Positions 2,938 to 61,549 of a DNA stretch of 64,000 bases are shown piece by piece. Each line of letters starts with the position of its first letter. The first letter of the stretch is position 1. The translations under genes were made by a program, and so were the position numbers. Below the pieces are notes generated by a model, which was given only the letters and a program-made list of their open reading frames with translations, was not told where the DNA came from and did no database searches. Origin of the DNA: a virus; the IMG/VR virus record IMGVR_UViG_3300028534_000013, positions 57,868 through 121,867 of that record, one strand, 5' to 3'.

Positions 2938-4680
2938 TTGATGGATGCCGTATCTGCTTTGAACAGTTTTCTTCCAAGCGAATTTCATGTTAAAAAAAGC
3001 GATTTACCACTAACAAAAGCCAAACTAAATAAACTGTTAACAGAATATGCTAAAAAATACCCGGACCATTACGCTAAAAATATACATAAAATAGGGGATT
3101 TGGGAGAAGAATTAGCTTATTTACACGGTCATCATGTTGGTATTGATGATTTACTGCATCCAAACAGAAAAAAAATAGAATCTCTTTTGGATAAAGAAAA
3201 TAAAAAATTATCTCTTTTAAGCACCGAAAAAAAGAAAGAGCATTTGTTAAACGTTTTTGATAAGGTTCAAAAACTAACAATGGAACCAGACGGAAACCAT
3301 TTAGTTGACCAAGGTAAATCAAGAAGCAGAGGAAACCCAGCAACAATAACAAGAACTATAGGAGCTTCAGTTTACACTGTGGACATGAACTCGGAACCAT
3401 TTCCTTTTCTTATTAAAAACTCATTATCGTCAGGATATAGAAGCCATGAAATGTTTGCCGCCGGTTCTCAGGCCAGATATGCCGCTGTACAAGCTGCTAC
3501 TTCAACATCTGAACCTGGAGCAATGAGTAAAGTATTAATAGCAAACACAGAACATTTGAAAATATGCTGCAAAGATTGCGGGACAAGAAACGGTATTGAA
3601 TATAAAGTTGATGACCCACAAATAATAGGAAGGTATGAAGCGGGCACCAATAGACTTATAACCAAAGAATATGTTAATCAATTAAAAAAACAAAAGAAAA
3701 AAACAATAATAGTTAGAGACCCTATTACATGTCAGGCTAAAAACGGGGTATGTTCAATGTGCTATGGGCATAATGCGATGGGTAAATTATATGAGCCTGG
3801 CCACAATATAGGAATACAGGCATCTCAAACGGTTGGAGAAAAAGCAACACAGCTTGTTTTGTCGGCAAAACATAATATTAAAGGTAAAATAACATCTAAC
3901 ATACCTACAGGTTTTGAAGCACAAAAAATTTTATTAAATACGCCTAAATCTTTTAAAGGGAAAGCTACTATATCGACTACTGACGGCAAAGTAGAAAGGA
4001 TTGAAAGATTGAGTACTGGTGGTTACAATATAGTAATAGCCGGAAAAACACACTACGTTTCTCCAGAAGTTAAACCTAAAGTTAAAGTTGGCGATGAAGT
4101 GTTTAAAGGACAAACACTAAGTACAGGACTAGCTTCTCCGAGAGAGATAATGGAGCATTCAGGAGTATATCAAGCTAGAAAATATACGGTTGATAAACTT
4201 TATGAAGCAAATGGTGGAGATATAGATAAAAGAGTTTTTGGGGTTTTGTCTAGAGGATATTTGGAATTGGCTAAACATAAAAATGACGATATGCATGAAT
4301 TACATAATTACGATGCGTTACTTCATACTGTTGAAATCCCAAACACGCACACGGTTAAAACTTCTGACAAACAGATTATGAATAAATATCTAGCACAACC
4401 GTTTTTACATTACAGTCCCGGAACCAAAATTACATCAGGAATAGTAAAAAAAATGAAACAACACGGATTGAAAGAAGTAAAAGTATCACACAACCCTCTA
4501 CCTGTTGTGCCTGTATATAAAACTTATGAGCAAAAACCGTTAGCTAACACAACAATTTGGCAAAAAATGAATTATAGAGGAATCAAGAAAGGATTGACTG
4601 GGGAGCTTCTGTACAACAATGAAACTGATATTGGAAAACTGCAAAGCGATAGAGCAAAATATACACTTGGAAGATTGTGA
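2938..4680 (+). CDS. rpoC: DNA-directed RNA polymerase beta-prime, C-terminal half
   Basis: Beta-prime motifs: SRGN, bridge helix FAAGSQARYAAVQAATSTSEPGAMSKVL, DCGT, Zn site RDPITCQAKNGVCSMCYG, trigger loop IGIQASQTVGEKATQLVL. Lacks the DxDGD motif. Confidence 0.92.
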   Translation: MMDAVSALNSFLPSEFHVKKSDLPLTKAKLNKLLTEYAKKYPDHYAKNIHKIGDLGEELAYLHGHHVGIDDLLHPNRKKIESLLDKENKKLSLLSTEKKKEHLLNVFDKVQKLTMEPDGNHLVDQGKSRSRGNPATITRTIGASVYTVDMNSEPFPFLIKNSLSSGYRSHEMFAAGSQARYAAVQAATSTSEPGAMSKVLIANTEHLKICCKDCGTRNGIEYKVDDPQIIGRYEAGTNRLITKEYVNQLKKQKKKTIIVRDPITCQAKNGVCSMCYGHNAMGKLYEPGHNIGIQASQTVGEKATQLVLSAKHNIKGKITSNIPTGFEAQKILLNTPKSFKGKATISTTDGKVERIERLSTGGYNIVIAGKTHYVSPEVKPKVKVGDEVFKGQTLSTGLASPREIMEHSGVYQARKYTVDKLYEANGGDIDKRVFGVLSRGYLELAKHKNDDMHELHNYDALLHTVEIPNTHTVKTSDKQIMNKYLAQPFLHYSPGTKITSGIVKKMKQHGLKEVKVSHNPLPVVPVYKTYEQKPLANTTIWQKMNYRGIKKGLTGELLYNNETDIGKLQSDRAKYTLGRL

Positions 4681-5231
4681 TGAGTTTTAGTAAAAAAATA
4701 AAAGCTCTTGAGTTAGAAATAAAAAAATTAAGGCAAGAAATAAACACTTTAAAACACGACCATTTAACAGGGTTGGGAAACAGACACAAGCTTTCTGACA
4801 CATTGCGTTTTTTATATTCAGAAAATAACCCTAAAACAAAATATAGAATTTGTATGATTGATGTGAATTGTTTACATGAAATAAATAGACAATTAAGCTA
4901 CAATGTCGGAGATGTTATTATAAAATATGTGGCCGAAGAAATAAAAAAAAGATGCAGCGGAACTTCAGCCTTAGCCTTCAGAATAGGAGGCGATGAGTTT
5001 GTTATAATAATGCATTCTTATGACAAATTATGCCTTAGAGATGTTAAATATATAACTTATAGCTGTGTAGAGTTTAATCCTAAAAAAGATAGTTTTAGAA
5101 AGATAATGGATGAAATTGATGAAAAAATAAAAGAAAATAAAAAAAAGGACAAGATATGCAAAATTGGAGAAATTCAAGAGAGTATCGAAAATGGAGAGCT
5201 AAGGTTATACGCAGAGATGTTAGATGTGTAA
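4677..5231 (+). CDS. Compact GGDEF (diguanylate cyclase-like) protein with N-terminal coiled coil
   Basis: DHLTGLGNR, MIDVN..EIN...VGD and FRIGGDEF motifs; start overlaps the rpoC-C stop. Confidence 0.85.
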   Translation: MMSFSKKIKALELEIKKLRQEINTLKHDHLTGLGNRHKLSDTLRFLYSENNPKTKYRICMIDVNCLHEINRQLSYNVGDVIIKYVAEEIKKRCSGTSALAFRIGGDEFVIIMHSYDKLCLRDVKYITYSCVEFNPKKDSFRKIMDEIDEKIKENKKKDKICKIGEIQESIENGELRLYAEMLDV

Positions 5232-5458
5232 TATGTGGAAGCATTAAAAACAGAGTCGCACATCACTTAAATCATGCAACATATTTTGTAGAAGAAAGAT
5301 TTGACGTAGAAAACGGAGTATGTCTATGTAAAGAGTGTCATATACAATTTCATAACAATTTTAAAAGAAGTAATCGTGTAAAATGCACAAAGTATGATTT
5401 TAACAATTTTACTGAATTACTAAAATATGCAAAGGAGAAATTATGTTCGACAAAATAA
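5156..5458 (+). CDS. HNH endonuclease
   Basis: CxxC...AHH...NGVCLCKECHIQFH; N-terminal WRNSREYRKWR typical of small phage HNH proteins. Confidence 0.9.
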   Translation: MQNWRNSREYRKWRAKVIRRDVRCVICGSIKNRVAHHLNHATYFVEERFDVENGVCLCKECHIQFHNNFKRSNRVKCTKYDFNNFTELLKYAKEKLCSTK

Positions 5459-5751
5459 AATTAATTATAGTAGGTATAGGAAGTGTTTTAGTCGCATTTT
5501 TGGGTTTGTTTATTAAGCTTAAAATAACCGAACATCACGCCGAAAACCTCGAAAACGAAAATGAAAACATAAAACATCAAAACGAAGCTTTAAAACAAAA
5601 TGTAGAAGTTCAAAAAGAAGAATTGGATTTATCAAACGTGCAACATAAGATAGAAAAAGAATTTGATACAGCTCAAAAGAAAAAAGAATCTGAAATTGAA
5701 GAAAAAATAACGGAGGCTGAAAATGGCAAAAAAACTACTATTACTATTTAG
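5443..5751 (+). CDS. Putative i-spanin (Rz-like)
   Basis: Single N-terminal TM (IIVGIGSVLVAFLGLFI) followed by a coiled coil; overlaps a lipoprotein gene. Confidence 0.7.
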   Translation: MFDKIKLIIVGIGSVLVAFLGLFIKLKITEHHAENLENENENIKHQNEALKQNVEVQKEELDLSNVQHKIEKEFDTAQKKKESEIEEKITEAENGKKTTITI

Positions 5752-6019
5752 TTTGTTGTTTTTTGTAGGTTGTACACAAAAAGAAATTGTGTATATAAAA
5801 AGTAGATGCCCGTCTTTTAGGTATGAGCCTGCAATTCCAGAAAGTAAAACTTTTACTTTTTCAAACAAAAATGATAAAATTGTCTTATCGAAGCAAGATT
5901 TTAAGGAAATCTTAGAAAATTATTCTTTTATGAAAAATGAATTAAACCAAACAAAACAATACATAAAAGAATACAATAAAATGATACAAAGGATTAACGA
6001 TGCCGGATATAGTAACTAA
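5723..6019 (+). CDS. Putative o-spanin lipoprotein (Rz1-like)
   Basis: Signal peptide with lipobox FFVGC; Pro-containing segment CPSFRYEPAIP; 29-nt overlap with the i-spanin. Confidence 0.7.
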   Translation: MAKKLLLLFSLLFFVGCTQKEIVYIKSRCPSFRYEPAIPESKTFTFSNKNDKIVLSKQDFKEILENYSFMKNELNQTKQYIKEYNKMIQRINDAGYSN

Positions 6020-6560
6020 ATTGGAAAAGATAGCTGAAGAGCTTCCTAAAATAGAGGACGCTATTGGAGCTAAAGAAACTTTAGAGAAAATAGCTTTCGC
6101 TGTTAAAGCTTTAGAGGTTATAGACAAAGGTGGTATGAATAAAGAAGCCGCAATATCAACAGCTTCACTGAGTCAAATAGGCGGAACGATGGCTAAAGCT
6201 TTAGTTGCTGGACTTGGAATAGGTCTTGCAGGAGAAACGTTGGATATTGGACATCAAAAAGTAAAAAAAATATTTTTTGAGAGAAAATTAAACTCTTTGG
6301 CCAAAGCGGTAAAAAAAGAAGCTCCTGAACTAAAACACACAGATGACGGAAAAATTAAAAAAATGTTAGAAGCTGGGTATCAGTTGGCTCCTGAAGTAAT
6401 GGAGAATCCTACTCTTGCGGCAAGTTTCGTAAGCATAGGAAACAGCTTGGGAGGAAAAGTTGACCCTAACACAATGAAAACTTTCGCTGATATACATTCA
6501 AAACTAAACGGAAGGGGAAGGCTCTCTGACAGTTTGAGCTCAGGAATGGGTCTTATATAA
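6000..6560 (+). CDS. K-x-A motif protein with Gly-rich hydrophobic segment (putative internal head/ejection protein)
   Basis: EKIAE, EKIAF, NKEAA, then GGTMAKALVAGLGIGLAG. Confidence 0.65.
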   Translation: MPDIVTKLEKIAEELPKIEDAIGAKETLEKIAFAVKALEVIDKGGMNKEAAISTASLSQIGGTMAKALVAGLGIGLAGETLDIGHQKVKKIFFERKLNSLAKAVKKEAPELKHTDDGKIKKMLEAGYQLAPEVMENPTLAASFVSIGNSLGGKVDPNTMKTFADIHSKLNGRGRLSDSLSSGMGLI

Positions 6561-6569
6561 GGTGATAAA

Positions 6570-7115
6570 ATGGGAACTTACAAAGTAAAGCAAAAAAACA
6601 AAAAAACAAAATTTAGCATTTTCAATTTACCTAAAATAAAAACAAATGTTGATTTAGCTAAATATGACCCTATTACCGGAGAAAAAATAGCTCTTGATTC
6701 TGGCTCAGACAATATCCAAAGCGGGGCCCAACAAAACATTCCTGCTGCCTTATCCGGAAGAAGACAAATAAACAAAAACGATTATTACAATTTAAGAAAA
6801 ATAAAAATGGAAACTATGGCTGATGCTCTTCAAAGCAGAAAACAACCAGTAGACTTGTTTGAAGCTATAAAAAACGGCACAGTTGGAACTACTGCCGGAG
6901 TTGCTATAGGGAATATTTTAAATACTTCAAACAGAGCAAAAGGATTGTTAGGGATAGGGCTTGGTGGAGCTATTGCGGCAATGGATGTCAATAGACAACT
7001 AAGAAAATACAACAACCAAATGGCAGCTAGAGAAGCTTTAATAGGACAGCCTACTGACAGAGAGAAAGCCTATATGAAACTATTAAAAGAAAAATATTCA
7101 CAAGGTAAAAAATAA
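6570..7115 (+). CDS. Hypothetical protein with two Gly-zipper segments
   Basis: GTVGTTAGVAIG and GLLGIGLGGAIAA. Confidence 0.65.
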   Translation: MGTYKVKQKNKKTKFSIFNLPKIKTNVDLAKYDPITGEKIALDSGSDNIQSGAQQNIPAALSGRRQINKNDYYNLRKIKMETMADALQSRKQPVDLFEAIKNGTVGTTAGVAIGNILNTSNRAKGLLGIGLGGAIAAMDVNRQLRKYNNQMAAREALIGQPTDREKAYMKLLKEKYSQGKK

Positions 7116-7639
7116 TGGATATTTTTAATTATTCGGACACAGATTATTCTGCTGTTCTATATAAAGACTTTTTTGTTGTTTATATGGATTTGATAAAATC
7201 TAAACTTAGAGACAAAAATGTAGACGATACTATAGTAAGGCTTATGGATGCAGATACAATAAATGTCAATAGAGCGCCTTTGATAATTTTAAAAAGGACT
7301 CATAGCCCACAGCCTCCTACAGCAGCGCTTTTAAACGAAAGACTTAACACAATAAACGACAAAAACATAATTAATAGCGTTTCATACCAAATGTTTAACC
7401 TGTTGATAACCAGCTATGGAAATACATATTTAGAAGCTGAAAGACTTGCAAGTTTAGTGATAGAAGCAATAATATTGTCATCAATAAATAAAATAAGAAC
7501 TTTAAGCGAAGATAGAATTATAGGACATGAATTTCTAAACTGGTCCGAAACAGGATTGGTGTCTCAAGATACAAAATTATTTGCTAGTTCTATAGAAATA
7601 AGAATAAGCACGATGTTTGAAACATCAACAGTATTATAA
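7115..7639 (+). CDS. Hypothetical structural protein (tail completion-like)
   Basis: 174 aa, TAATG-coupled; ITSYGNTYLEAERLA resembles tail terminator proteins. Weak call. Confidence 0.45.
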   Translation: MDIFNYSDTDYSAVLYKDFFVVYMDLIKSKLRDKNVDDTIVRLMDADTINVNRAPLIILKRTHSPQPPTAALLNERLNTINDKNIINSVSYQMFNLLITSYGNTYLEAERLASLVIEAIILSSINKIRTLSEDRIIGHEFLNWSETGLVSQDTKLFASSIEIRISTMFETSTVL

Positions 7640-7651
7640 AAAGGATTTAAC

Positions 7652-8620
7652 ATGAATTTATACCCTTTGTTTTTAGGAAGCGGAAACTCTGCCGTAGCAG
7701 GTCAAGGTTCTTTCATATTGGCTATTAAAGCCGCATTCACTACAACAGAAAAAGTAACTAAAAAATATGAGCTTAATGGAAAGGCTATAGGCGAAGAAAT
7801 AAATTTCACTGCTAATTTTATCTCCAATTTACGTACTTACACAGGCTCCATAAGCGGTTTTATTGTTGAAGGGCTTCCTTATTATGCTATATGGATGCAA
7901 CTAATAAATGACTCTGTTACGTTAAATATGTCCCTTTTGTCAGAAGAATATAAAATAGCCACTATAACTCAAGAGATAAATATACAACAGCCAAATGTGA
8001 TATTTACTTTTGAAGCGCTTCCTGGTTCTGTGGAATTAAACTGCATTTTAGAAGAAAAAGATTTCACTTCAACTATATCAATAGGTGAAAATAGAATCAT
8101 AGAAATTACAAACAACGTTATCGAGCTCAACGAGAACAATGTAACTTTTAACACTCAAGCAGGAAATATTTACAGTGATATTTTAGAAGAAACAATATAT
8201 CCAACAAATATAAACGCAGAAATTTTAAATAACAACATTACTATATTAGGATATGTAAATGGAGAATTTGTAAGCATTAATACAAATATAGATAAAAATT
8301 ACGTAATCGAAATTAAGGAAGGGTGGAACAATATTATAGTGCCGACCCCTATAGCAAACAATAAAGAAATGAAAGTTTTTGATTTTATAAATATATTATC
8401 TAATTATATAGATAAAGAGCCTTATGAGGTATTTGAAATTGCTTCGTTTGTTGAAAATGATACAGAAAACAACTTTATTATCACAAAAGAGTTTATGTCT
8501 GATGTTAATGGACCAAATAACTTTAATTTATTTAAGCAAGTTGGTAACGAAATGTATCCTGTTCCGTTTTTAATTAAATCTTTAGTAGATGCAACTATTC
8601 CGCTAAAAGAAATACTATGA
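7652..8620 (+). CDS. Hypothetical structural protein
   Basis: 322-aa beta-rich ORF with RBS AAAGGA. Confidence 0.65.
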   Translation: MNLYPLFLGSGNSAVAGQGSFILAIKAAFTTTEKVTKKYELNGKAIGEEINFTANFISNLRTYTGSISGFIVEGLPYYAIWMQLINDSVTLNMSLLSEEYKIATITQEINIQQPNVIFTFEALPGSVELNCILEEKDFTSTISIGENRIIEITNNVIELNENNVTFNTQAGNIYSDILEETIYPTNINAEILNNNITILGYVNGEFVSINTNIDKNYVIEIKEGWNNIIVPTPIANNKEMKVFDFINILSNYIDKEPYEVFEIASFVENDTENNFIITKEFMSDVNGPNNFNLFKQVGNEMYPVPFLIKSLVDATIPLKEIL

Positions 8621-8850
8621 CCTGTGTAAGAATTGATAACATTGGGGTTATTCAAGAGATAGTAAGATACATGAGAGAAAAAGTTTTTGTTTGCAAAAAA
8701 AGATATGTATGTTTAAAAGCTAAAGATTTCGCTACCGAGAAAGTGTATCTTAATGAACTAATGGATATTTTAAGAAATGTTCCAATAAAAACAACTTTTG
8801 AAATAATGTACAACTACATAAGAGATGAAGGAGAATGTGATGCTCACTAA
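8617..8850 (+). CDS. Small hypothetical protein
   Basis: 77 aa, ATGA overlap with the upstream gene. Confidence 0.6.
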   Translation: MTCVRIDNIGVIQEIVRYMREKVFVCKKRYVCLKAKDFATEKVYLNELMDILRNVPIKTTFEIMYNYIRDEGECDAH

Positions 8851-10141
8851 ATATATAGACGCACAAATCGAATATGCTGAAGCTGAAAAAGAAATATGTC
8901 CCAATGGAAGATGTTCAATTGTTAAAACAGCGTCCGAAAGACCAGAAATATTTAATGATATTAAAATCAAAAAAAACCATGCATATTTGTATGTTATAGC
9001 TATGGGGGCAGGTGATTTTTATGGCGAAAATAAGAACGGAGATTTTTTTTGGGAAAAAGATTTAAAACAATATTACACTAAATTTTTGACTTCCGGGGTA
9101 TTTATTCAGCATGATAACAAAGACCCTTCAAAAAGCATTGGTAAAGTACTCAAAGCAATTTATAATGATGATATGCATAGAGTAGAACTGCTTATAGAAA
9201 TAAAAAAAGAATTGGCGCCTGATATTTATTACGCTATAGAAAATGGAGAAAGAATAGCGGTCTCTATGGGGACCAAAGTTACCGAAGAGCATTGCTCTTA
9301 TTGCGGACATGTAACAAAAGATAGCCTGGCAAACAGATGTGAGCACTTAAAATATATGATGCACCAAATTATGCCAAATGGTGTAAAAGTTTTTGCAGTC
9401 AACCATCCGCCTTTGAATTTTTTTGATATCTCTGTAGTTAGAAAACCGGCCGACACTCAAGGATATGCCTTGTTTCAAAAAGTTGCATCAGATAACAACG
9501 AGAGTCAAAAATCAAAAAAAATGGCTCTTTCTAAAATAGCTGAGCTTAAAAAAAGAATTGACGCATGGTCAGTTTCAAATCCTCTTAGCCATTCAGATGT
9601 TAAGGAAATGAAGCAAATACCAATGCCTGTTTTAAGTAATTTTGTCAAAGCTAATGATATTTTATTGAGACCGTCAGAGATAATAAGCTTATTAAGCAAT
9701 ATAGACGAACATACATATTATTCTATAACCAAACACGACACTCTTGAAACTATGATTAAATTATTGTCTTTACTTGAGGGTTGCGACCAACGTCCTACAG
9801 GGCCAGTTATAAAGCTTGCGTCAGAAGACAAATACCCGGTTTTAAATAAATTAAAACATAGAGAAATTTTAATAAAAGAAGCAATGAATCAAATGGAAGC
9901 AGAAAATATGGATGCATTTGGAAATAAAAGAATAAGGCTGACTAAAAAACATAAAACTACATCATACCCATACAATGAATATGCCGGAATAAGAATTAAC
10001 TTAAACAATGGAGATAGTGTAACCGTTCAAGAACACATATTTAATGATGTTTTTGACGCTTTCAAAGATAGCGGAGCAATTGATTCCGTGTACGGTATAT
10101 TGCCTAATGGAACTGAAAAAATAATAGCTGTTCAAAGGTAA
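8825..10141 (+). CDS. Phage prohead (head maturation) protease with Zn-binding insert
   Basis: GENKNGDFF, FIQHDNKDP, AVSMGTKV, CSYCG...CEHL and FFDISVVRKPAD motifs, matching the HK97/assemblin-like phage protease layout. Confidence 0.75.
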   Translation: MKENVMLTKYIDAQIEYAEAEKEICPNGRCSIVKTASERPEIFNDIKIKKNHAYLYVIAMGAGDFYGENKNGDFFWEKDLKQYYTKFLTSGVFIQHDNKDPSKSIGKVLKAIYNDDMHRVELLIEIKKELAPDIYYAIENGERIAVSMGTKVTEEHCSYCGHVTKDSLANRCEHLKYMMHQIMPNGVKVFAVNHPPLNFFDISVVRKPADTQGYALFQKVASDNNESQKSKKMALSKIAELKKRIDAWSVSNPLSHSDVKEMKQIPMPVLSNFVKANDILLRPSEIISLLSNIDEHTYYSITKHDTLETMIKLLSLLEGCDQRPTGPVIKLASEDKYPVLNKLKHREILIKEAMNQMEAENMDAFGNKRIRLTKKHKTTSYPYNEYAGIRINLNNGDSVTVQEHIFNDVFDAFKDSGAIDSVYGILPNGTEKIIAVQR

Positions 10142-10144
10142 TCA

Positions 10145-11320: not shown

Positions 11321-11404
11321 TAATTCACTTATTTTATAAAAAAATTTTACTTTCTTTTTTTATATCTATAAAATAATAATGAAAAACAAACCAAAGGAGA
11401 TATT

Positions 11405-23441: not shown

Positions 23442-23881
23442 AATGAGATACTTTCATCGTTGTAATTTATCTCACTGGAAGTTATTTTAATGTTATTTTT
23501 ATCTTTTGGTATTACTGTTATGTTGTCTCTATAGATTGATATAGTGCCTTCTATTTGGTCTGTTTTATATTTGATATTAGACACATCAGATGCAGCGTTT
23601 ACAATTAAAGGCGTTTCAGAGATTTTGTTGTTCAAATCTACAAAAAAACTGTTGATAAGTTTAATATTTTCATTTATAGTTGGAATTATGTTTTCTATAT
23701 TATCTACTTTTTTTAACTCTATTATAGGCATTTCAAATCCTTTTTCTTTTATTTTGTTAATAAAATAATTTATTGATAATTCTATATCATTAAACACAGA
23801 ATTGATGCTGTTTAAACTTAGGGCGTCTATTGAGTTTATTTTTTTAAAAAACACCTTTAATTCAGCTATTATCGATACCAC
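23438..23881 (-). CDS. Hypothetical protein
   Basis: 147 aa, overlapping both neighbours. Confidence 0.6.
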   Translation of the reverse strand: MVSIIAELKVFFKKINSIDALSLNSINSVFNDIELSINYFINKIKEKGFEMPIIELKKVDNIENIIPTINENIKLINSFFVDLNNKISETPLIVNAASDVSNIKYKTDQIEGTISIYRDNITVIPKDKNNIKITSSEINYNDESISL

Positions 23882-24482
23882 CGTAATCCCTTAATGTTTT
23901 AATGTATGCTTGTTTCATTTTGTCTTGCAATTCTTTTCGTTTAGAATAATATGTTGTTTTTGGTAGCCCTGTATACTTATATGCTTTTTCAGGGGTCATA
24001 TTTTGAGATATTGTATGCAACACTTTTTCCTCTTCTTTAGAAAGCCCATGCAACAAATCTTTAGGATTAATATCTATTTTAGAAGTATCTACCCCATGAA
24101 CAATAGCTACATGCTGATTGTTTTCAAGTACACTTTTTACTTTTGATTCTGGTATTTTTAATTTTTTAGCAATATCATATGTGGTTGGGGTTATATGTTT
24201 GTAGGTTTTCATTTCTTTGTAAGTGTTAATTATTTTGTTTTCAATACCTTTAGAATATTCTGTGGTTTTTATTAAGCCCCCTTTTGCTTGGGCCGCTCTA
24301 CTCATTTTATTCATATATGTTGCTAAATGGGTTTGAAATTGGGATTTATTAGGGTCGTAAGTTTTTACGGCTTGATTGTATAATCTTTCAACATGGAAAT
24401 CCAACATAGCCGGGGAAAAATGTCCCTCATATCTGGTCTTATAATAAGATAGCAGTTTGTTTTTTTGTTTTTCATCCAGCAC
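23862..24482 (-). CDS. Phage sigma70-family-like factor
   Basis: Region 2-like QAVKTYDPNKSQFQTHLATYM, region 3-like PTTYDIAKKLKIPESKV, region 4 HTH-like LSKEEEKVL...AYKYTGLPKTTYYSKRK. Confidence 0.75.
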   Translation of the reverse strand: MLDEKQKNKLLSYYKTRYEGHFSPAMLDFHVERLYNQAVKTYDPNKSQFQTHLATYMNKMSRAAQAKGGLIKTTEYSKGIENKIINTYKEMKTYKHITPTTYDIAKKLKIPESKVKSVLENNQHVAIVHGVDTSKIDINPKDLLHGLSKEEEKVLHTISQNMTPEKAYKYTGLPKTTYYSKRKELQDKMKQAYIKTLRDYGGIDNS

Positions 24483-53193: not shown

Positions 53194-53199
53194 ACCAAT

Positions 53200-54297
53200 A
53201 TGTATTCCTACAAATTCAGAATATACCCAAAGAAAGAAATAGCAGAGTTGTTAATAAAATGGTTTGGATGTAGTAGATATGTGTGGAATTGGGGATTAGA
53301 CAGAAAAACTCAACACTATAAAGAAACAGGAAAATCCCTCTCATATCTACAATTAGCCAATGAATTAACTCTTTTAAAGAGGGAACAAACTTGGCTAAAA
53401 GAAGCACCATCTCAACCATTGCAACAGGTGCTTAAACAACTTGAAACTGCATTTGCAAAATTTTTTGAAAGGAAGGCTGGGTATCCTAAATTCAAATCCA
53501 AGAAGAACTCAACTCAATCCTTGCAAATTCCTCAGGGATTTAAAATTGAAGAGAATAAATTATATCTTCCAAAATTAAGAAAAGAACCTATAAAAATAAA
53601 ATTACATAGAAAAATCAAAGGCAATATCAAACGCATTGTAGTGTCTATGAATAAGATAGGTCAGTTTTTTGTATCAATTATAACTGACTATACTCCTGAA
53701 AAACTTCCTAAATCTAACAAAAAGATAGGGATAGATTTGGGATTAAAGCATTTTCTAATAACAAGCGACGGTAGAAAAATTCCACTACCTAAATGGTTTA
53801 AAAAAACTGAAATTCTAATTAAGAGAGTTCAAAGAAAGTTATCAAGAAAACAGAAAGGAAGTAAGAGATATGAAAAGGTTAGACAAAGATTAGCTAAACT
53901 TCAATTAAAAGTATCTAATCAAAGATTAGACTTCTTGCACAAACTTTCAAAACAGCTGATAGACGAAAACCAAGTCATAGCTATTGAGAGTTTGTGTATT
54001 AAAGGAATGATTAGAAATCATAAACTAGCTAAATATATTGCAAATGCAAGCTGGGGTAAATTCACTGAACTACTTAAATATAAAGCTAAATGGTATGGTA
54101 GAACTGTAGTGTCAGTAGATAGATTTGCCCCAACTTCAAAAATGTGCAACAAATGTGGATACATCAAACAAGACCTTAAACTCTCTGATAGAGCTTGGAC
54201 CTGCCCAAGATGTGGAACTTTCCACGATAGAGATATTAACGCTGCTCAAAACATTCTTGAGTTAGCGTTAACTACCGCTGGAACAGCGGGAAGTTAG
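53200..54297 (+). CDS. tnpB: TnpB RNA-guided endonuclease
   Basis: N-terminal HTH YKFRIYP...FGCSRYVWN; RuvC triad GIDLG / AIESL / DRDINAA intact; CNKCG...CPRCG Zn ribbon. Confidence 0.95.
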   Translation: MYSYKFRIYPKKEIAELLIKWFGCSRYVWNWGLDRKTQHYKETGKSLSYLQLANELTLLKREQTWLKEAPSQPLQQVLKQLETAFAKFFERKAGYPKFKSKKNSTQSLQIPQGFKIEENKLYLPKLRKEPIKIKLHRKIKGNIKRIVVSMNKIGQFFVSIITDYTPEKLPKSNKKIGIDLGLKHFLITSDGRKIPLPKWFKKTEILIKRVQRKLSRKQKGSKRYEKVRQRLAKLQLKVSNQRLDFLHKLSKQLIDENQVIAIESLCIKGMIRNHKLAKYIANASWGKFTELLKYKAKWYGRTVVSVDRFAPTSKMCNKCGYIKQDLKLSDRAWTCPRCGTFHDRDINAAQNILELALTTAGTAGS

Positions 54298-54427: not shown

Positions 54428-54434
54428 TTTAATA

Positions 54435-54443
54435 ATTGTATCA
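54435..54443 (-). promoter_or_regulatory. Orphan TGATACAAT promoter with AAAGGAAG RBS pointing into the tnpB right end
   Basis: Near-identical to the module upstream of 51290; the adjacent ATG is immediately followed by TGA inside the element end. Confidence 0.65.
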
Positions 54444-54471
54444 TTTTTCAAAAAAAAGGAAACTATTAACG

Positions 54472-54491
54472 TTTCACGGTATGTATATATG
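54472..54491 (+). promoter_or_regulatory. Phage-type promoter motif TTTCACGGTATGTATATATG
   Basis: Repeat copy. Confidence 0.7.
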
Positions 54492-54541
54492 AGTGAAAGA
54501 GTTTACGGTCTCTAAAATCGTAAAAAATTAAAAGGATTAAA

Positions 54542-55000: not shown

Positions 55001-55024
55001 ATAAAAAAATTAAAAGGATAAAAA

Positions 55025-55099
55025 ATGTTAATAGGTGGAATATGTTTTTTTGGCGGAATGTTTATATTTCTTATGTGGAATTTAACGAGAGAGGTGTAG
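55025..55099 (+). CDS. 24-aa hydrophobic micro-ORF MLIGGICFFGGMFIFLMWNLTREV
   Basis: AATTAAAAGGA RBS module; ends 1 nt before the next ATG. Confidence 0.6.
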   Translation: MLIGGICFFGGMFIFLMWNLTREV

Positions 55100-55100
55100 C

Positions 55101-56051
55101 ATGAAAGTATTTTTAGCAAAAAACCTGAAAGAGGCAATTAGTGTAGCAGAGGAAGAAAAAACAAAAGGAGCTTTCGTTGTGGCTGTTGAAGCAGAGTGGG
55201 GAGATGAAGCGCTGGAATCACCTTACGCAGATATAGCTCTAAACCATCACGGGTCAAGGGCGTCTAACCCGTGTCCAAGCGAAATTGGAATTGTAGCACC
55301 ACAAGTGGTTGAGCTATGTAAAAAACATAAAAACAAAACTTACATAGTAAGCCACATAGACGCCGATACAATATTTGGAATTATGTGGTGCGAGGGGCTG
55401 TTTGACGCTGAAAAAGGATACGCTCCCGATTTAGTTCAAATAGCCAAAATGGTGGCGTTTACAGATAAGAACGGGCGTCACATAGCGATGAGTGAATTAG
55501 AAGCTTTAAACGATACAGATGCTTTTAAAAAGTGGCTCTCACTCGGGTTACTATTTAGCAGAAACGCCATATCATTTAAAGGGGATATATCTGAACATGT
55601 GGCTAAAATAATATATGCCGCATCTCAGATTATATTCTCAAAAAACATCAAAGAGAGCCAAATATACAAAGAGGCTCTCGAATGGGAAGCAGGCAAAGCT
55701 AAAAGCGCAAAAGAGGCAATCACATACAAAGACGATATTTTATTGGGGTTTGCCTCTAAAAAATTTATGTGCGACAATTATGCGTTGTTTGCGGATGAAG
55801 ACGGTATTGTAAGAAAAATAATCATCCAGTATGACTTGCATAATAAATCCATATTATTGGCCGCATATGACGCAAAGACGGCACAGGATTTTTTCGGTAA
55901 AAAAGGAGTAGTAGGGCCACTACAAGATTTTTTTGGAAATGAGGCAGGCGGCCATATCGCTATCGGAGGAAGCCCTAGAAATAAGCCTATGAAATGGCAA
56001 GATTATAAAAAATTTCTCAAATTCATTAAAAGCAAAATTTGGGAAAAATAA
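55101..56051 (+). CDS. Putative circularly permuted DHH-like phosphoesterase
   Basis: LNHHG precedes VSHIDADT (reverse of the usual RecJ/DHH order); later D..G; C-terminal AGGHIAIGGSP resembles the DHHA1 GGGH motif. Confidence 0.55.
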   Translation: MKVFLAKNLKEAISVAEEEKTKGAFVVAVEAEWGDEALESPYADIALNHHGSRASNPCPSEIGIVAPQVVELCKKHKNKTYIVSHIDADTIFGIMWCEGLFDAEKGYAPDLVQIAKMVAFTDKNGRHIAMSELEALNDTDAFKKWLSLGLLFSRNAISFKGDISEHVAKIIYAASQIIFSKNIKESQIYKEALEWEAGKAKSAKEAITYKDDILLGFASKKFMCDNYALFADEDGIVRKIIIQYDLHNKSILLAAYDAKTAQDFFGKKGVVGPLQDFFGNEAGGHIAIGGSPRNKPMKWQDYKKFLKFIKSKIWEK

Positions 56052-56056
56052 CTACA

Positions 56057-56076
56057 TTTCGTGGTATGTATATATG
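56057..56076 (+). promoter_or_regulatory. Phage-type promoter motif TTTCGTGGTATGTATATATG
   Basis: Part of a 48-nt repeat (56041-56088 vs 51344-51391, 3 mismatches). Confidence 0.72.
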
Positions 56077-56079
56077 AAA

Positions 56080-56185
56080 GGGAGATTTGCGACCTATGGC
56101 GCCCGTGAGGGGTAAAACAAATTTCCCTAAGCAAGGCAAGAGCCATAGGCAGGGTATGCCCTAACCCTGATGCCAAATAGGGTAA
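56080..56185 (+). ncRNA. Structured, pseudoknotted 5' leader RNA of unknown class
   Basis: Stems 56080-89/56118-27, 56093-100/56142-49, CCC-GTGA-GGG and 56150-55/56164-69. Confidence 0.45.
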
Positions 56186-56207
56186 AAATCAAATTAAAAG
56201 GACGAAA

Positions 56208-56411
56208 ATGAAATACACATTAAAAAATCTAAAAGTAAACTTCGGTGTAGATAATGGTGACAACAGTGTAATTACAGGTGCTAAAAATGAACTACATGGC
56301 GAGTTACTTATTGAAGAGTTGGAGATTGAATATAGTGCGGAAGAGTTTAAAGAGCTTATTGGAGTCGCAAAAGACGCAATCTCAATCATAAAAGAGCTAC
56401 GCAATCTTTAA
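56208..56411 (+). CDS. Small acidic hypothetical protein
   Basis: 67 aa with an AATTAAAAGGACGAAAATG start module. Confidence 0.75.
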   Translation: MKYTLKNLKVNFGVDNGDNSVITGAKNELHGELLIEELEIEYSAEEFKELIGVAKDAISIIKELRNL

Positions 56412-56415
56412 GATT

Positions 56416-56562
56416 GCTGCTCTGCTTTGAGTTCATTAAGGTGAATTGAAAGCAGCGTAAACGCCCGCCCGAGCCTATAATCGGGTCTGACCGCCAACCG
56501 GAGCGGGTTAATCCGGTCCTTGCACAGAATTCATTGCGGTGAATTGTATGCAGGGAAACCTG
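56416..56562 (+). ncRNA. Structured intergenic RNA with twin related hairpins
   Basis: GAGTTCATTAAGGTGAATTG (56429-48) and GAATTCATTGCGGTGAATTG (56527-46) cap two long stems; CAGG-GAAA-CCTG hairpin. Confidence 0.4.
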
Positions 56563-56586
56563 TAAATAAAAATTAAAAGGACGAAA

Positions 56587-56922
56587 ATGAAATTTGTAAA
56601 TCTAACGCCACATACAATAAAAATTGTAGCATTAGCTACAGACGGAAAAGAAATAGTAGTAGAACCAAGTGGAACAATTGCAAGAGTTGAAACTATTGAA
56701 AAAGTTATAGCAGAGGTTGACGGAATTCCAATCGTTAAAAGAACTTTTGGTGAAGTTAAAGGAATTCCTGCTCCGGAAGAAGGAGTGGGGTATATTGTCT
56801 CAGCTATGGTATTATCAGCTGTAAAAGGGCGCATAGATGTTTACGCCCCTGACACTGGTAGTACAGCTATCAGAAATGATAAGGGACAGATTGAAGCGGT
56901 GACCAGACTAGTAAGAGCTTAA
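56587..56922 (+). CDS. NLTPH-family protein, candidate Crn4-like ring nuclease/anti-CRISPR
   Basis: VNLTPH.I...PSG.IARV...IP.P.EG..YIVS...R.DV.APDTG..AIR..KGQI; family link recalled, not searched. Confidence 0.55.
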   Translation: MKFVNLTPHTIKIVALATDGKEIVVEPSGTIARVETIEKVIAEVDGIPIVKRTFGEVKGIPAPEEGVGYIVSAMVLSAVKGRIDVYAPDTGSTAIRNDKGQIEAVTRLVRA

Positions 56923-56924
56923 GC

Positions 56925-57262
56925 CTATGGGAAGGAAAACCCAAAAAACCCGTTTATGTGAGGTCGTTAAACATTTGGTAAGAAAAAGGTTATCGTCTTT
57001 CCGATGCGGGTAGGAAAGAGAATGAACGTTGTAATAATTCCCGTCTGCTATGCGGCAGCAGAGTGTAGAAGAGGTGCCTAGGTTTCCTCGGTTAGTTAGG
57101 CTGCACAGATGTTTATATTTAATAAGAAACCGAGGGTTAAATATATTTTAAAATATCTCTCCTGCCGCCATTGAGGGCACACATCAATGAGGAGAGACAA
57201 GGAGTTTATTATGTTAGCTACAGGGAGAAAGGGAGTGTGCATTTCCCCTTTCATTAGCACCT
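56925..57262 (+). ncRNA. About 340-nt densely base-paired region, possibly with a 24-aa ORF (57211-57285)
   Basis: At least six stems, including long-range AGGTGC/GCACCT pairing and a pseudoknot (see findings). Confidence 0.4.
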
Positions 57263-57292
57263 GTTTATTTTTTTGCTTACCTTAAAAGCAAC

Positions 57293-60200
57293 CTATTTCT
57301 TTTTCATCCCGTTTGGATATTTTGTCGCATGATAGAATCCTACATAAGGGTCAAGGTCTATTTTCATTTGTAAATTTTCATTGTTTCTGGCACCAAAAAG
57401 CTGTTTTGATGCAAGCATTTTATTTTTCACATCATCAATCGCTTTTTGAGTTAATGGTGCATGAATTGCCAATTGGTCACCGTCATAATCTGCGTTTTGC
57501 GGATTTTCGTGTAACGGGGAAATCCTCATAGCATTATCAGGACTAATCTTTGCGTATGCTCCAATCATGTTATGTTTGTGTAATGTAGGAGCTCTGTTTA
57601 TAACAACAGGTACCTCTTTCATTGTGTCTTCAAGAAATCTTTTTGCTGTATGCGTTCTTTCCTCTAAATGTTTTTGTATATCAGTAGAACTAAGACCGGC
57701 TTGTGACATTTTTCTTGTTACATGCGGTTCGAAAATCTTCCATGCAACTTCTTTAGGCAGCTCTACCTGGTCCATAGGCAAATATTTTTCTTTAGGAATA
57801 ATGACTGCTCTTCCGGATGTAAACACTTTGTTTTGTAATACGTTTTGTTGCCATAAACTTTCTTTAGGTTTTTTGCCAGCTATAATTTCCTGAACAGATT
57901 TAACACCTTTTCTTTTTAATACAGGGTCAGGGGAATCGTTAACTCCATACATTGCTCCTACGTGTTTTTGTAGTTCCGTTTTTAACTTGCCCGTTATAGG
58001 GTGGTTATCGCCAAATTCTTTTTTTGCTTCCTTTAAGGCGTTAGCGGCACTAATTATGGTTGAATAATGATTGTTTATATCGTGGTCAACCACTGTTCCG
58101 TTAGGCAATTTGCTTACCGGCCTATATTTAGTTGGAATTACAGGTATTTTGCTTATAAAAGCTACGTCTTTTAAGTGCATATCATTTTCTTTAAGTTTTT
58201 TTATAGCTTTTACAACTCTCACCCCCTGGTTTATTTTGTTAGGGTCATTTGTTTTTTTAATAGCCTGTTTGTATGTTTTTTCTACAGTGTTAAGATTTAC
58301 TTTGTTTAACTGTTTTTCTATTTCAGAAATTTTTCCTTCTTCTATTTTTTTATCCAATTGTTTTTCCGACATTCCAAGCACTTTGGCTACTATAGGCTTA
58401 TAGTTTGGATTAATTATTTTGTCGCCCAGTTCTATATGTCCATAATAGTTTCCATCACCCCCGAATATTTTAGGGTCATAAAAACCGTGAGGCACTTCGT
58501 TTAAAGTCCCATGTTTTAAACCAAAAGGAGACTTAACCTCACCATTGGACATTTTTTTAATATCTTTATCGGTCATAGGGACTACTTTTATTTTATCTCC
58601 TTCTTCCACTACATTCATATGCATTTGATGTAAAAGAGATTTGAACTTTTTAAGTGATGTTTTTTCTTCGGGCATAGGTAGAATGCTGTCTCCTCTCATA
58701 AAAGCATTGAACCAATCTCTGTTTTTTTGAGACCTTATTTTAAAAGTTTCCCTTAAGAAATCTTTTGCTCCGTGGGCGAGAAGCGCATTGACTTCCATGT
58801 TTGAAATAGAGCTTGCAGAAGTTTTACCGCCTTTTTTAGGCTGGTCCAATCCGTCTGTTGCCCCGTATCCTACTGCGCTCCAAGCACTGTCCCCTTGTTT
58901 AAATAATTTTTGAACATGATAGTTGCCTATAAAAACAGGGTTTTTTAAATAGGTTTTTCTAACTGGGTCATAAACCTTGTGATACAGTTTTACACCATGT
59001 TTTTCGGCCTCTTTTTTTGCAAATTCAGCAAGATTTTCATCCGTAAAATGAGGAATAACATACTGTTTTCCGGTCTTTTCTGAAACAGCTCCCAAGGTAG
59101 CCTCTATAATCTGCGCCGGATTTTGTCTTGATGCTACACCTGCACCGCCCATTATTACATCTATCGGTTTACCGTGTTCATCGTGAGGCATTTCTTTATC
59201 AGGTATAATTTTAGAAATTATCCCTTTATTACCTGAACGTCCGGCAATTTTATCTCCCACTTTTAAAGGAGCTTTGTATGTAAGTATCATTCTCACTTTA
59301 CTTCTGCTGTCGTCTATTTTGTCTAACTTTGTAGGATAATCGTACTTCCATTCTTCCATAAAAGGAGCATATCCTCCATATAACAGTTTTTTTACTTTTT
59401 CATTTGAAAATTTAACTTCATTTTCGTCTAGTTTTTTTACGCCCAAATAAACAGGTTCTCCTTTATGTAAATGGACGCCAGGTTTTAAAAAACCTTTTTC
59501 ATCATATTTGTTCAAATCTATTTTTTTGGCTATATCCGGAAACAGGTTTACAAACTTTTGCTTATTGAATTCTATGTTTTTATCTTTATCAATGTCTTTT
59601 TTGTGATAATGTAAAGATGTCATTTTTTTGGCGGCACTTTCACTAACTACAAAAGCGTCATTTCTTGTCCCGGGATACATCATAAAACCTACTCTTAAGT
59701 TTTTACCTAAAGCATATTGACCGTCTTTTGTATAGTTGCTGTCTGCAAGATGTTGTCCTGCTTTCACTTTATCTCCAACTTTAACGGTTGGGTAATGTTT
59801 GATATATGTTTTAGTGTTAAGAGGGGTTTTGTATGCTGAATAAGGAACCTTGTGTGTTTTTCCATCTTTATCCTTAACGTAAATCATGCCTTCTTTTTTG
59901 TCCATTTTTACAATTGTTCCGTCAACCGGAGCAACAGGGAGATGTTGTTTCGCATACTCAGTAAGAGGAACGTTTCCTTTGCTGTCTCCTATTACAACAT
60001 GTGGCCTATCTCTTTCGGCAAGAGGGAGTGCCTGTAAAATATGTTTTGAGGCCATTAGATTTCTGGTAGGGTCATTGCTGCTTAGCGCTCCCAATGAGTT
60101 CATTGCAGGACCAAACATTAACGATGCATCAGGAATCTGATAATCAGCCTGATGTATTTTGCCTTCAAACAAATTGTTTCCATGTCTTATCCCAACAGTT

Positions 60201-61549
60201 CCTTTTTTGTCCACATCAGGAAAAGCTACTTTTTTGTCCCATAAATCTTTTAATCTTTTTACTTCAAGCTTCCCTGTTTTCAGATTTTTTACTAACATTG
60301 CGGGATTGTTGTGTTTATCTACATATGCGTTTTCGGTTAAAGACAATGTTATGCCGGTATTAGACCCTTCTGGAGATTTAATCGGGTCTATATATCCTAA
60401 TTGTGACAAATGCAACCCTCTCATTGATGGAGTTATCACTTCACTTGATTTAACCCCTCCTTCACCCAATGGTGTTACGTCTGCGTTTATTTGCTGAATC
60501 TGTAAAGGGTTATATCCTTCCGGCATTCTTGAAATAGCAGACGTTGTTACGAAATTTTTACTGGCTTTATTTAAAAGAGGTTCATTCCATACATGTTCCA
60601 CTTTTGCTGGATTAAAACTGTTAAGTGGAGCTCTTTTTTTCCATATCTCTTTGTTTAGATTTCTTTTAACGCCTTCAACAATCAAATCTTCGGGCTTCAT
60701 TACTTTTTTATAAATTAAATTTTCCTTATCGTCAGCCTCAGCTTCACCCCTTTTAACTTTTACCACTTTTTTTGTAGCCGCCAATAATGCATCTTTATTT
60801 ACATGGTCAGTATTAACACCTAAAGTGTGTTTGGTTGCCTCCGGGTCTAGCTTTCCGCTTTGAATAGCTTCTTTTAATTGCGCCATTCCTTCAGGCGTAT
60901 TAGCTTTATCAGCTGAAACAACACCGGTTACTTCGGCTAATGATTTTAAAGTTTTATTCAAGTCGCTTTTTGATTTAGTCAAAACGTACAGCTTATCACC
61001 TAATTTTTTCTTAATTTCATCATCGGACGCTCCAAGTAATTTATAGATATCATAAGCGTTATATTTTCTGCTGCCTACTTCCACCCATAAATCATCCTTA
61101 GATTGAGGTGTAACTACTTTCATACTTTGACCGCCCGCTGTATTAAACATTGTTTCAACGTTTCCGTTATTTTTAACCATCGTGTATCCGGACGGCTTCA
61201 ATCTAAATTGATGAGGAATAACATAATGTGACCCTTCCACTAAATATGTCCCCAGTTTGTTTTTATATGGTATAGAGCCGACATACACTTTTTTTTCATC
61301 TTCCACTTTTCCAGTATGTTTGTTTACTACTTTAGCTGTGGCATATACTTTTGTGTGAACCGATTTTTTCTTTTTTAGCGCTTCCTGCATGGAGTGCCAA
61401 TCATCTTTAGGGTCTTTAAATTCTATGTTTTCAAAATGTAAAACTTTATGTGCCCCGCTAATAGGATTATTTTCTAGGTGTTCTTTTATTTTTTGTTTTA
61501 TATCTTCATTGTGTTTCTCAGGGCTAGTTATAAGTTTTTTAAATTCCAT
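57293..61549 (-). CDS. rpoB: Fused RNA polymerase beta plus beta-prime N-terminal (catalytic) half
   Basis: Beta motifs GSIPY...GTYLVEG, YIDPIKSPEGSNTG, DPTRNLMAS..LQALPL, GDKIAGRSGNKG, SRQNPAQIIE, GG...SNMEVNAL; then beta-prime motifs GFYDPKIFG, GHIEL, IPVIPTKYRP, SGRAVI, NRAPTLH and NADYDGDQ. Confidence 0.95.
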   Translation of the reverse strand: MEFKKLITSPEKHNEDIKQKIKEHLENNPISGAHKVLHFENIEFKDPKDDWHSMQEALKKKKSVHTKVYATAKVVNKHTGKVEDEKKVYVGSIPYKNKLGTYLVEGSHYVIPHQFRLKPSGYTMVKNNGNVETMFNTAGGQSMKVVTPQSKDDLWVEVGSRKYNAYDIYKLLGASDDEIKKKLGDKLYVLTKSKSDLNKTLKSLAEVTGVVSADKANTPEGMAQLKEAIQSGKLDPEATKHTLGVNTDHVNKDALLAATKKVVKVKRGEAEADDKENLIYKKVMKPEDLIVEGVKRNLNKEIWKKRAPLNSFNPAKVEHVWNEPLLNKASKNFVTTSAISRMPEGYNPLQIQQINADVTPLGEGGVKSSEVITPSMRGLHLSQLGYIDPIKSPEGSNTGITLSLTENAYVDKHNNPAMLVKNLKTGKLEVKRLKDLWDKKVAFPDVDKKGTVGIRHGNNLFEGKIHQADYQIPDASLMFGPAMNSLGALSSNDPTRNLMASKHILQALPLAERDRPHVVIGDSKGNVPLTEYAKQHLPVAPVDGTIVKMDKKEGMIYVKDKDGKTHKVPYSAYKTPLNTKTYIKHYPTVKVGDKVKAGQHLADSNYTKDGQYALGKNLRVGFMMYPGTRNDAFVVSESAAKKMTSLHYHKKDIDKDKNIEFNKQKFVNLFPDIAKKIDLNKYDEKGFLKPGVHLHKGEPVYLGVKKLDENEVKFSNEKVKKLLYGGYAPFMEEWKYDYPTKLDKIDDSRSKVRMILTYKAPLKVGDKIAGRSGNKGIISKIIPDKEMPHDEHGKPIDVIMGGAGVASRQNPAQIIEATLGAVSEKTGKQYVIPHFTDENLAEFAKKEAEKHGVKLYHKVYDPVRKTYLKNPVFIGNYHVQKLFKQGDSAWSAVGYGATDGLDQPKKGGKTSASSISNMEVNALLAHGAKDFLRETFKIRSQKNRDWFNAFMRGDSILPMPEEKTSLKKFKSLLHQMHMNVVEEGDKIKVVPMTDKDIKKMSNGEVKSPFGLKHGTLNEVPHGFYDPKIFGGDGNYYGHIELGDKIINPNYKPIVAKVLGMSEKQLDKKIEEGKISEIEKQLNKVNLNTVEKTYKQAIKKTNDPNKINQGVRVVKAIKKLKENDMHLKDVAFISKIPVIPTKYRPVSKLPNGTVVDHDINNHYSTIISAANALKEAKKEFGDNHPITGKLKTELQKHVGAMYGVNDSPDPVLKRKGVKSVQEIIAGKKPKESLWQQNVLQNKVFTSGRAVIIPKEKYLPMDQVELPKEVAWKIFEPHVTRKMSQAGLSSTDIQKHLEERTHTAKRFLEDTMKEVPVVINRAPTLHKHNMIGAYAKISPDNAMRISPLHENPQNADYDGDQLAIHAPLTQKAIDDVKNKMLASKQLFGARNNENLQMKIDLDPYVGFYHATKYPNGMKKK

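Follow-up and report, generated by a model that had tools for sequence, protein, structure and literature searches.

Can a bacterial-type RNA polymerase (RNAP) be built from a beta subunit fused to the catalytic half of beta-prime, with the other half of beta-prime encoded 53 kb away? This question is raised by a 64,000-nucleotide stretch of viral DNA (hereafter the window), which corresponds to bases 57868-121867 of IMG/VR record IMGVR_UViG_3300028534_000013. Near its two ends, on opposite strands, the window carries an open reading frame (ORF) for a long fusion chain (chain 1, P0001) and one for a shorter chain (chain 2, P0002). An initial annotation had interpreted the pair as a two-polypeptide core enzyme with both double-psi barrels on one chain. 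Pfam matches, phmmer alignments, structural models and a complex prediction agree on this point and support the conclusion that the two chains make up a single catalytic core that lacks alpha and has both barrels in one polypeptide. The enzyme belongs, as a split form, to a large family of phage polymerases with fused beta and beta-prime that has essentially gone undescribed. The record spans 176,653 bp, is 100% complete according to CheckV, and is a complete tailed-phage genome of roughly 177 kb.

The fusion chain and its separately encoded partner

Chain 1 is specified by 1418 open codons with no internal stop, and its Pfam domains follow one another in the order Rpb2_3 (residues 346-410), Rpb2_6 (556-903, 1.9e-41), Rpb1_1 (1086-1227) and Rpb1_2 (1292-1376, 8.6e-16). 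Against solved structures, phmmer aligned residues 35-972 with residues 50-1046 of cyanobacterial beta (4e-63) and residues 1066-1416 with residues 186-533 of beta-prime, while a map based on hidden Markov models (HMMs) placed the beta module on Salmonella beta 419-1342. The beta sequence is continuous over residues 1-984 and is not split into several polypeptides. Characteristic motifs were located at residues 362-366 (GEGGV of the fork region), 770-776 (GRSGNKG), 881-885 (KLFKQ), 1028-1041 (IFGGDGNYYGHIEL) and 1352-1359 (NADYDGDQ, window 57473-57496), the last being followed by only 59 residues to the chain end. The catalytic aspartates D1354, D1356 and D1358 are invariant in alignments of 21 and of 71 homologs, as are K775 and G776 of the beta lysine motif and many structural glycines and prolines among homologs. 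The uninterrupted passage from beta into beta-prime, the early chain end after NADYDGDQ, the GRSGNKG and KLFKQ substitutions and a deleted N-terminal Zn finger had all been read from the sequence in the initial annotation, and each was recovered here.

With respect to the Zn finger, the alignments show that bacterial beta-prime carries a CxC...CxxC ribbon between IFGP and GHIEL, whereas in chain 1 five residues stand in its place (IFGG-DGNYY-GHIEL, 58427-58468). Chain 1 has no cysteine at all in its 1418 residues (P about 5e-6 at the genome background of 0.86% Cys), and of 103 split-type homologs, 74 likewise have none. The enzyme has six cysteines, all in chain 2, where four of them form Zn site II. 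According to the consensus, the tyrosine of NADYDGD, the missing ribbon and the KLFK variant are typical of the whole clade.

The junction itself is seamless. In the HMM map against Salmonella RpoB plus RpoC, the C-terminus of beta (an LGINIE-type strand) continues straight into the IKxxxxSPD strand of beta-prime with no linker and with loss of the first ~15 beta-prime residues. An AlphaFold model of residues 700-1418 (predicted local distance difference test, pLDDT, 87.6; predicted template modelling score, pTM, 0.81) has the junction as an ordered beta-hairpin with pLDDT of 87-95. In this model, residues 1-284 superpose on X. oryzae beta 912-1382 (Z 10.5) and residues 288-703 on Mycobacterium tuberculosis (Mtb) beta-prime 10-581 (Z 21.2); structural matches to beta stop at model residue 284, and those to beta-prime start at 283-288. 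The model also superposes across both barrels on QDE-1 (Z 11.2) and on the crAss phi14:2 enzyme (Z 7.6). A long helical hairpin is retained at chain 1 residues 1157-1201, mapping to E. coli beta-prime 265-309, the clamp helices. In beta-prime, the clamp helices bind region 2 of sigma.

Independent sequences carry the same fusion. A 25,150-bp contig from another run and study contains 57200-61600 in one piece with 6 substitutions and 0 indels, the probable source run covers 57579-61600 identically, and a further IMG/VR contig encodes an ortholog of 93% identity, likewise of 1418 codons, with a ratio of nonsynonymous to synonymous substitution rates (dN/dS) of 0.029. The second-run contig and the ortholog contradict an assembly error, the outcome that would have undone the original interpretation. 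When 1.84 billion cluster representatives were searched with a junction-spanning query (residues 700-1418), 1189 proteins fell below 1e-30, and all 150 matches listed (50% identity clusters, E<=3e-91) cross the junction in one stretch from beta into beta-prime. In a 5.8-billion-sequence search, at least 120 homologs combined Rpb2 with Rpb1 domains. In IMG/VR, a search with one protein yielded 2 loci only, and an alignment-based search was needed to recover the at least 391 contigs that encode relatives.

Chain 2 matches Pfam Rpb1_5, aligns with the C-terminal halves of bacterial beta-prime and, as previously proposed, supplies the bridge helix, the second Zn site and the trigger loop, together with the SBHM/jaw and a C-terminal module. 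The four cysteines of Zn site II are at least 90% conserved among homologs, and K311 and H312 of the trigger loop are invariant. Its AlphaFold model (pLDDT 85.3) superposes on Mtb beta-prime 666-1257 with Z 27.8 and on cyanobacterial RpoC2 5-1229 with Z 26.8. The gene is present in a single copy in the genome, and 60 homologs of 574-652 aa were collected. Translation probably starts at ATG 2941 (579 aa) and not at TTG 2938, because an AAGGG downstream of the promoter-like site precedes ATG 2941 and homologs measure 579-580 aa. The stop of this gene overlaps the start of a gene for a stand-alone GGDEF-domain protein of 184 aa, an overlap that suggests co-transcription with the polymerase subunit.

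The two chains also fit each other. Along the fully fused relative P0120, chain 1 residue 1416 lies opposite residue 1404 and chain 2 residue 8 opposite residue 1406, with no gap and no overlap. A complex prediction for chain 1 residues 985-1418 with chain 2 residues 1-560 gave a score of 0.68 (best of three controls, 0.00), in line with the expectation that the chains would model as one enzyme; the predicted interface sets chain 1 residues 1380-1414 against chain 2 residues 3-65. Scores at least this high were obtained for 51 of 78 solved complexes and for 2 of 108 mismatched pairs, but since RNAP structures have already been solved, the score may partly reflect memory of the model and indicates likeness, not proof of binding.

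As for other subunits, neither alpha (PF01000, PF01193) nor omega (PF01192) was detected at E<=1 in the complete genome, the controls matching in 14 of 14 genomes; the lack of alpha that had been reported for the window thus holds for all 176,653 bp, and no alpha was found in any of 19 relatives. The complete genome contains one RNAP set, with a single locus each for Rpb2_6 and Rpb1_2. Beside chain 1, a further beta-prime-C gene or a remnant of one was looked for and ruled out. A 206-aa sigma-like protein gives the only Sigma70_r3 match in the genome and is the likely specificity factor of the enzyme. Comparable sigma-r3 ORFs of 208-404 aa occur in 18 of the 19 relatives. The protein is weakly similar (E 0.004) to the region-2 stretch of gp10 of Salmonella phage Arash, which likewise lies just above the Sigma70_r3 cut-off, and a tblastn search of the genome with Arash gp10 gave nothing significant.

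Table 1. Positions in the window of the polymerase genes, their parts and neighbouring features
Feature	Position	Strand	Evidence or remarks
Beta / beta-prime-N fusion gene (P0001)	57293..61549	-	Single 1418-aa ORF, Pfam order, dN/dS, second contig
Beta module, residues 1 to about 984	58598..61549	-	phmmer, HMM map, model superposition
Beta-prime N-terminal module, residues about 985-1418	57296..58597	-	Clamp, clamp helices, catalytic double-psi barrel
Beta to beta-prime junction, about residues 970-996	58562..58640	-	Seamless, ordered, not a flexible linker
Beta-prime C-terminal chain gene (P0002, 579/580 aa)	2938..4680	+	Pfam Rpb1_5, model, homologs
P0002 bridge helix	3472-3558	+	Residues 179-207
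P0002 Zn site II	3571-3585 and 3730-3762	+	C214, C265, C272, C275
P0002 trigger loop	3835-3885	+	Residues 300-316, His312
Near-consensus sigma70-type promoter-like site	2882..2909	+	TTGATA, 16 nt, TATAAT; consensus match only, not evidence of use
206-aa sigma-like protein	23862..24482	-	Pfam Sigma70_r3, 26.4 bits, cut-off 25.3
Stand-alone GGDEF-domain protein	4677-5231	+	Pfam 6.7e-18
Head maturation protease-like ORF	8825-10141	+	phrog_18299, 6.5e-11
TnpB/IS200-605-type transposase-like ORF	53200-54297	+	phrog_506, 4e-131
Region directly 3' of chain 1 stop	56925-57290	-	~370 nt without long ORF

Most of the window resists annotation. When 20 large neighbouring ORFs were compared with PHROG, the only matches were to a head maturation protease, which is the sole clear morphogenesis annotation among them, to two weak structural or tail families and to a TnpB-type transposase; with the annotation nearly empty, there is only loose support for placing the genes in a structural module. 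Neither Rfam nor tRNA scans of the window gave any match. The region directly 3' of the chain 1 stop has a GC content of 0.42-0.44, compared with about 0.31-0.37 around it and in the sequence generally, and a predicted RNA fold of -85.5 kcal/mol (z = -2.5); no Rfam family matches this region, which may encode a structured RNA or act as an elaborate terminator. The runs that hold the sequence derive from an epibiont metagenome and, in small part, from a hydrothermal-vent metagenome.

Family distribution and origin of the split

The layout is that of a large phage family, whose cultured members include Salmonella phage Arash and Vibrio phages D69, D148 and D181. Among the 19 long IMG/VR relatives, 11 have the beta-prime-C gene 1-8 kb downstream of the fusion gene on the same strand, seven have a single ORF of 2056-2244 aa, and one, at 51% identity, resembles the present genome in having the genes on opposite strands with about 64 kb between them. 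A relative at 70% identity likewise has them on opposite strands, about 47 kb apart. The 53-kb distance noted initially is therefore confirmed for this genome, but such wide separation (47-64 kb) is limited to this subclade, most relatives having the genes 1-8 kb apart. In another relative (G009:C1:159887-161662), the beta-prime-C homology lies within a 1397-aa frame, so that it is fused to ~800 aa of something else.

A FastTree phylogeny of 224 homologs (1399 columns), rooted on beta plus beta-prime of Salmonella and Staphylococcus, placed the fully fused forms as a basal grade and the split forms as a nested clade (n=185) with one apparent re-fusion, and parsimony reconstructed the root state as fused, with three changes. 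Because the two parts abut residue for residue in the ~2000-aa relatives and those relatives are basal, the split appears to be a secondary fission of an ancestrally fused beta-beta-prime chain. Against this polarity stand the use of only two bacterial root sequences across a long stem (1.40) and the sampling of homologs by similarity to the query, which together make it tentative. The polymerase gene is also a hotspot for selfish elements: inteins or LAGLIDADG/homing-endonuclease domains (PF14528, PF14890, PF05204) are found in the polymerase gene of P0043, P0048, P0057, P0064-P0066, P0121 and others, and in Vibrio phages D148 and D181 a homing endonuclease gene interrupts it.

The cut point had been described as different from those of known enzymes, and this claim stands in part. 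The position in beta-prime is not itself new, since chain 2 starts within about 10 residues of the RpoC2 start: its residue 13 corresponds to residue 5 of Synechococcus RpoC2 (model 13..580 against 8syi_Z 5..1229) and its residue 15 to residue 6 of tobacco beta-double-prime (model 15..580 against 8w9z_c 6..1321). The beta-prime-C chains of AR9 and phiKZ begin 65 and 38 residues earlier than chain 2, respectively, and the archaeal A'/A'' break is found about 190-235 residues beyond it. Beta-prime has been cut repeatedly at this permissive site, and what is new is the combination of the cut with the fusion of beta to beta-prime. Around the cut, ~45 residues (roughly E. coli beta-prime 520-565, as read from the alignment) are absent in this subclade and in the fused P0120, and Arash retains about 35 of them.

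Probable function and alternative explanations

The explanation that we favour with good, though not full, confidence is that the locus encodes an autonomous two-chain, sigma-guided and probably virion-borne phage RNAP that was secondarily split. Chain 1 would provide a complete minimal beta running into beta-prime, and since it holds both double-psi barrels, the whole active centre (three aspartates and the beta lysines) would be on one chain together with the clamp and clamp helices, up to a stop in the inter-domain region past the beta-prime barrel. Chain 2, of about 580 aa, would add the bridge helix, the second Zn site, the trigger loop, the jaw/SBHM and the C-terminal module, docking non-covalently, for the most part by contacts of its first ~65 residues with the final ~40 of chain 1. 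The covalent joining of beta to beta-prime probably takes over the role that an alpha dimer has as assembly platform, and the compact sigma-like protein probably confers promoter specificity. If Arash is a guide, virions probably carry the enzyme, which would start phage transcription independently of the host polymerase. With regard to its history, an ancestral single-chain polymerase would have been cut, and rearrangements in this subclade would then have moved the genes about 50 kb apart. As judged from sequence, the two-chain enzyme should be catalytically active; six changed positions of the rifampicin pocket (Q513R, F514M, D516E, H526I, R529D and S531T in E. coli numbering) predict that it is insensitive to rifampicin. 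It may be speculated that freedom from cysteine would be an advantage for chain 1 if it is carried out of the cytoplasm in virions.

Several observations weigh against this explanation. The sigma-like assignment consists of one Pfam domain barely over the cut-off, Sigma70_r2 was not detected by Pfam in the genome, and the protein has no sequence match in the PDB. Some otherwise conserved beta residues differ in chain 1 (GRHGNKG to GRSGNKG, KMHARS to SAWSAV). Packaging in the virion is known only for Arash, at about 29% identity. In that phage, mass spectrometry of virions gave gp206 the highest spectral count and showed gp216 and gp10 to be abundant as well, and the authors allow carry-over of abundant proteins as an alternative (PMC10585845). 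Finally, expression that is late or driven by the host would agree with the host-type promoter-like site in front of the beta-prime-C gene, a site that is silent on packaging.

The last of these points leads to the alternative that survives best, although we consider it unlikely: a non-virion polymerase, not injected but made after infection from host-type promoters, which transcribes middle or late genes in the manner of the phiKZ/AR9 non-virion RNAPs. Such a role would be consistent with the near-consensus sigma70-type site and with the presence of one RNAP set here, whereas a phage known to inject its multisubunit RNAP usually has genes for another (PMC7598289). It is at odds with the Arash virion, where the orthologous chains and sigma are among the most abundant proteins, with the avoidance of cysteine in chain 1 across the family and, insofar as the annotation can be relied upon, with the location of the genes in a structural region.

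A hybrid enzyme, in which the phage chains would recruit a host alpha dimer, omega and/or host sigma, is less probable still. The bacterial-type clamp helices and beta/beta-prime architecture have been kept (E down to 1e-63 against cellular enzymes) and no phage alpha or omega is encoded, as this alternative would have it, but the main reason for requiring alpha disappears once beta is fused to beta-prime, and the phiKZ/AR9 enzymes function in the absence of this subunit (PMC7598289). In addition, the family spans varied environments and hosts (Salmonella, Vibrio, vent epibionts), and all but one of the 19 relatives have a sigma-like gene of their own.

Mis-assembly, a frameshift or a decaying gene can be set aside almost completely, as this idea stems only from the metagenome-assembly source and found no support: besides the indel-free 25-kb contig and the ortholog of identical length under constraint, the junction is common to hundreds of homologs with invariant catalytic residues, the relatives at 51% and 70% identity likewise keep the genes 47-64 kb apart on opposite strands, and no beta-prime-C remnant lies beside chain 1. 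Rejoining of the chains after translation by a split intein into one ~2000-aa polymerase is just as improbable, for although inteins and homing endonucleases are common in homologs, no intein domains were detected by Pfam in either chain, and chain 1 ends and chain 2 starts exactly where the fused relatives are continuous, which leaves no room for intein halves.

If the favoured explanation of a two-chain, sigma-guided phage enzyme is true, this would be the simplest bacterial-type RNAP core with near-cellular sequence, comprising two chains, no alpha or omega, one Zn site, a cysteine-free catalytic chain and its own sigma-like factor. It would offer a tractable model for core assembly without the alpha platform and could show which peripheral elements, for example the Zn ribbon or the stretch near E. 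coli beta-prime 520-565, are dispensable. It also bears on why one beta-prime site was cut independently in the present phage, in jumbo phages and in cyanobacteria and plastids. With at least 391 IMG/VR contigs and at least 150 clusters at 50% identity, the family is large, and since it has cultured members, these proposals are directly testable. A virion-borne, rifampicin-insensitive enzyme would represent a third route by which large phages gain independence from host transcription.

Comparison with known polymerases

The cultured relatives Arash (gp206, gp216 and the sigma gp10) and Vibrio phages D69, D148 and D181 have the same architecture, with a fusion of 1525-1527 aa, a beta-prime-C chain of ~606-609 aa and a small sigma-like protein. 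In tblastn they cover 94-98% of chain 1 at 28-29% identity, and they share the missing Zn ribbon and the NADYDGD variant. Their genes lie 1-5 kb apart on the same strand beside the portal gene, whereas here they are 53 kb apart on opposite strands with the portal elsewhere; Arash gp206 (1525 aa) has about 35 extra C-terminal residues compared with chain 1. Public records call the gene 'beta subunit' or 'hypothetical protein': Arash gp206 and gp216 are both annotated as 'beta' and gp10 as 'sigma factor RpoS', and both D69 genes are 'hypothetical'. The paper on Arash calls gp206 simply 'beta' and does not mention the fusion (PMC10585845). The only arrangements covered in reviews of jumbo-phage RNAPs are split subunits, a fusion involving an HD domain, and YonO-like enzymes of one chain, and no description of a phage beta/beta-prime-N fusion was found in the full-text literature, subscription journals being outside the scope of the search. 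The fully fused single-chain relatives (about 1980-2250 aa) belong to the same family, and chains 1 and 2 align with them end to end; they differ in that here the chain is cut after the beta-prime barrel and its second part is encoded far away.

For cyanobacteria and plastids, the second chain starts at the same place, and cyanobacterial beta is the best full-length sequence match to the beta module. The cyanobacterial enzyme, however, has a separate beta, a Zn ribbon, alpha, omega and a large trigger-loop insertion, and RpoC2 measures about 1220-1390 aa, compared with 580 aa for chain 2. Plastid RpoC1 extends past the point that matches the chain 1 end, the phage lacking the segment that precedes the cut. 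In the RpoBC proteins of Helicobacter and Wolbachia, the beta C-terminus is covalently joined to the beta-prime N-terminus, but these are cellular enzymes with a continuous full-length beta-prime, alpha, omega and both Zn sites; the phage junction differs from theirs in lacking the first ~15 beta-prime residues and a linker. The single-chain two-barrel RNAPs (YonO, crAss gp66, QDE-1-like enzymes and P23-45 gp96) share with chain 1 the placement of both barrels on one chain, whereas chain 1 keeps the complete beta and beta-prime-N domain set, with E 4e-63 to cellular beta.

The phiKZ/AR9 enzymes are likewise phage-encoded, lack alpha and have beta-prime split after the catalytic barrel (offset by 40-65 residues). 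AR9 beta-prime-N 3-426 superposes on chain 1 residues 987-1411 (Z 14.9) and AR9 beta-prime-C 66-596 on chain 2 residues 1-538 (Z 14.2). Their beta is split, with no beta to beta-prime fusion, a non-sigma fifth subunit is present, and virion and non-virion sets are encoded (PMC7598289, PMC7824862). Here beta is intact and fused, one set occurs with a sigma-like gene, and similarity to cellular RNAPs is far higher; membership in the phiKZ/AR9 group was rejected on account of the one RNAP set and the continuous beta. The mReC phages are uncultured tailed phages whose RNAPs are readily aligned with bacterial ones; the tables published by Weinheimer and Aylward (2020) give beta (about 900-1560 aa) and beta-prime (about 900-1390 aa) as separate proteins, usually from neighbouring genes, and no fusion is mentioned in the paper (PMC7481178). 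Identity with this clade was also rejected, as its beta and beta-prime are separate whereas the ORF here is fused. The mReC phages were filtered for a stand-alone beta-prime of at least 800 aa with NADxDGD (PMC7481178), which would exclude the present architecture. One mReC contig (3300000243 SA_S2_NOR18_50mDRAFT_1000001) appears with two RNAP sets, _40, _47 and _50 (beta, beta-prime-C-like and beta-prime-N-like) and _76 and _78 (PMC7481178), and some phages may combine split and unsplit polymerases.

It is conceivable, at a little less than even confidence, that the family constitutes a third major lineage of phage multisubunit RNAPs besides phiKZ/AR9 and mReC. Ancestrally, it would have had a single, cysteine-poor and alpha-independent chain with its own minimal sigma, borne in the virion. 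The present enzyme would then be a fission product cut at the cyanobacterial/plastid site, and a functional bacterial-type core would be able to assemble from beta plus the catalytic half of beta-prime and from the mobile half of beta-prime alone.

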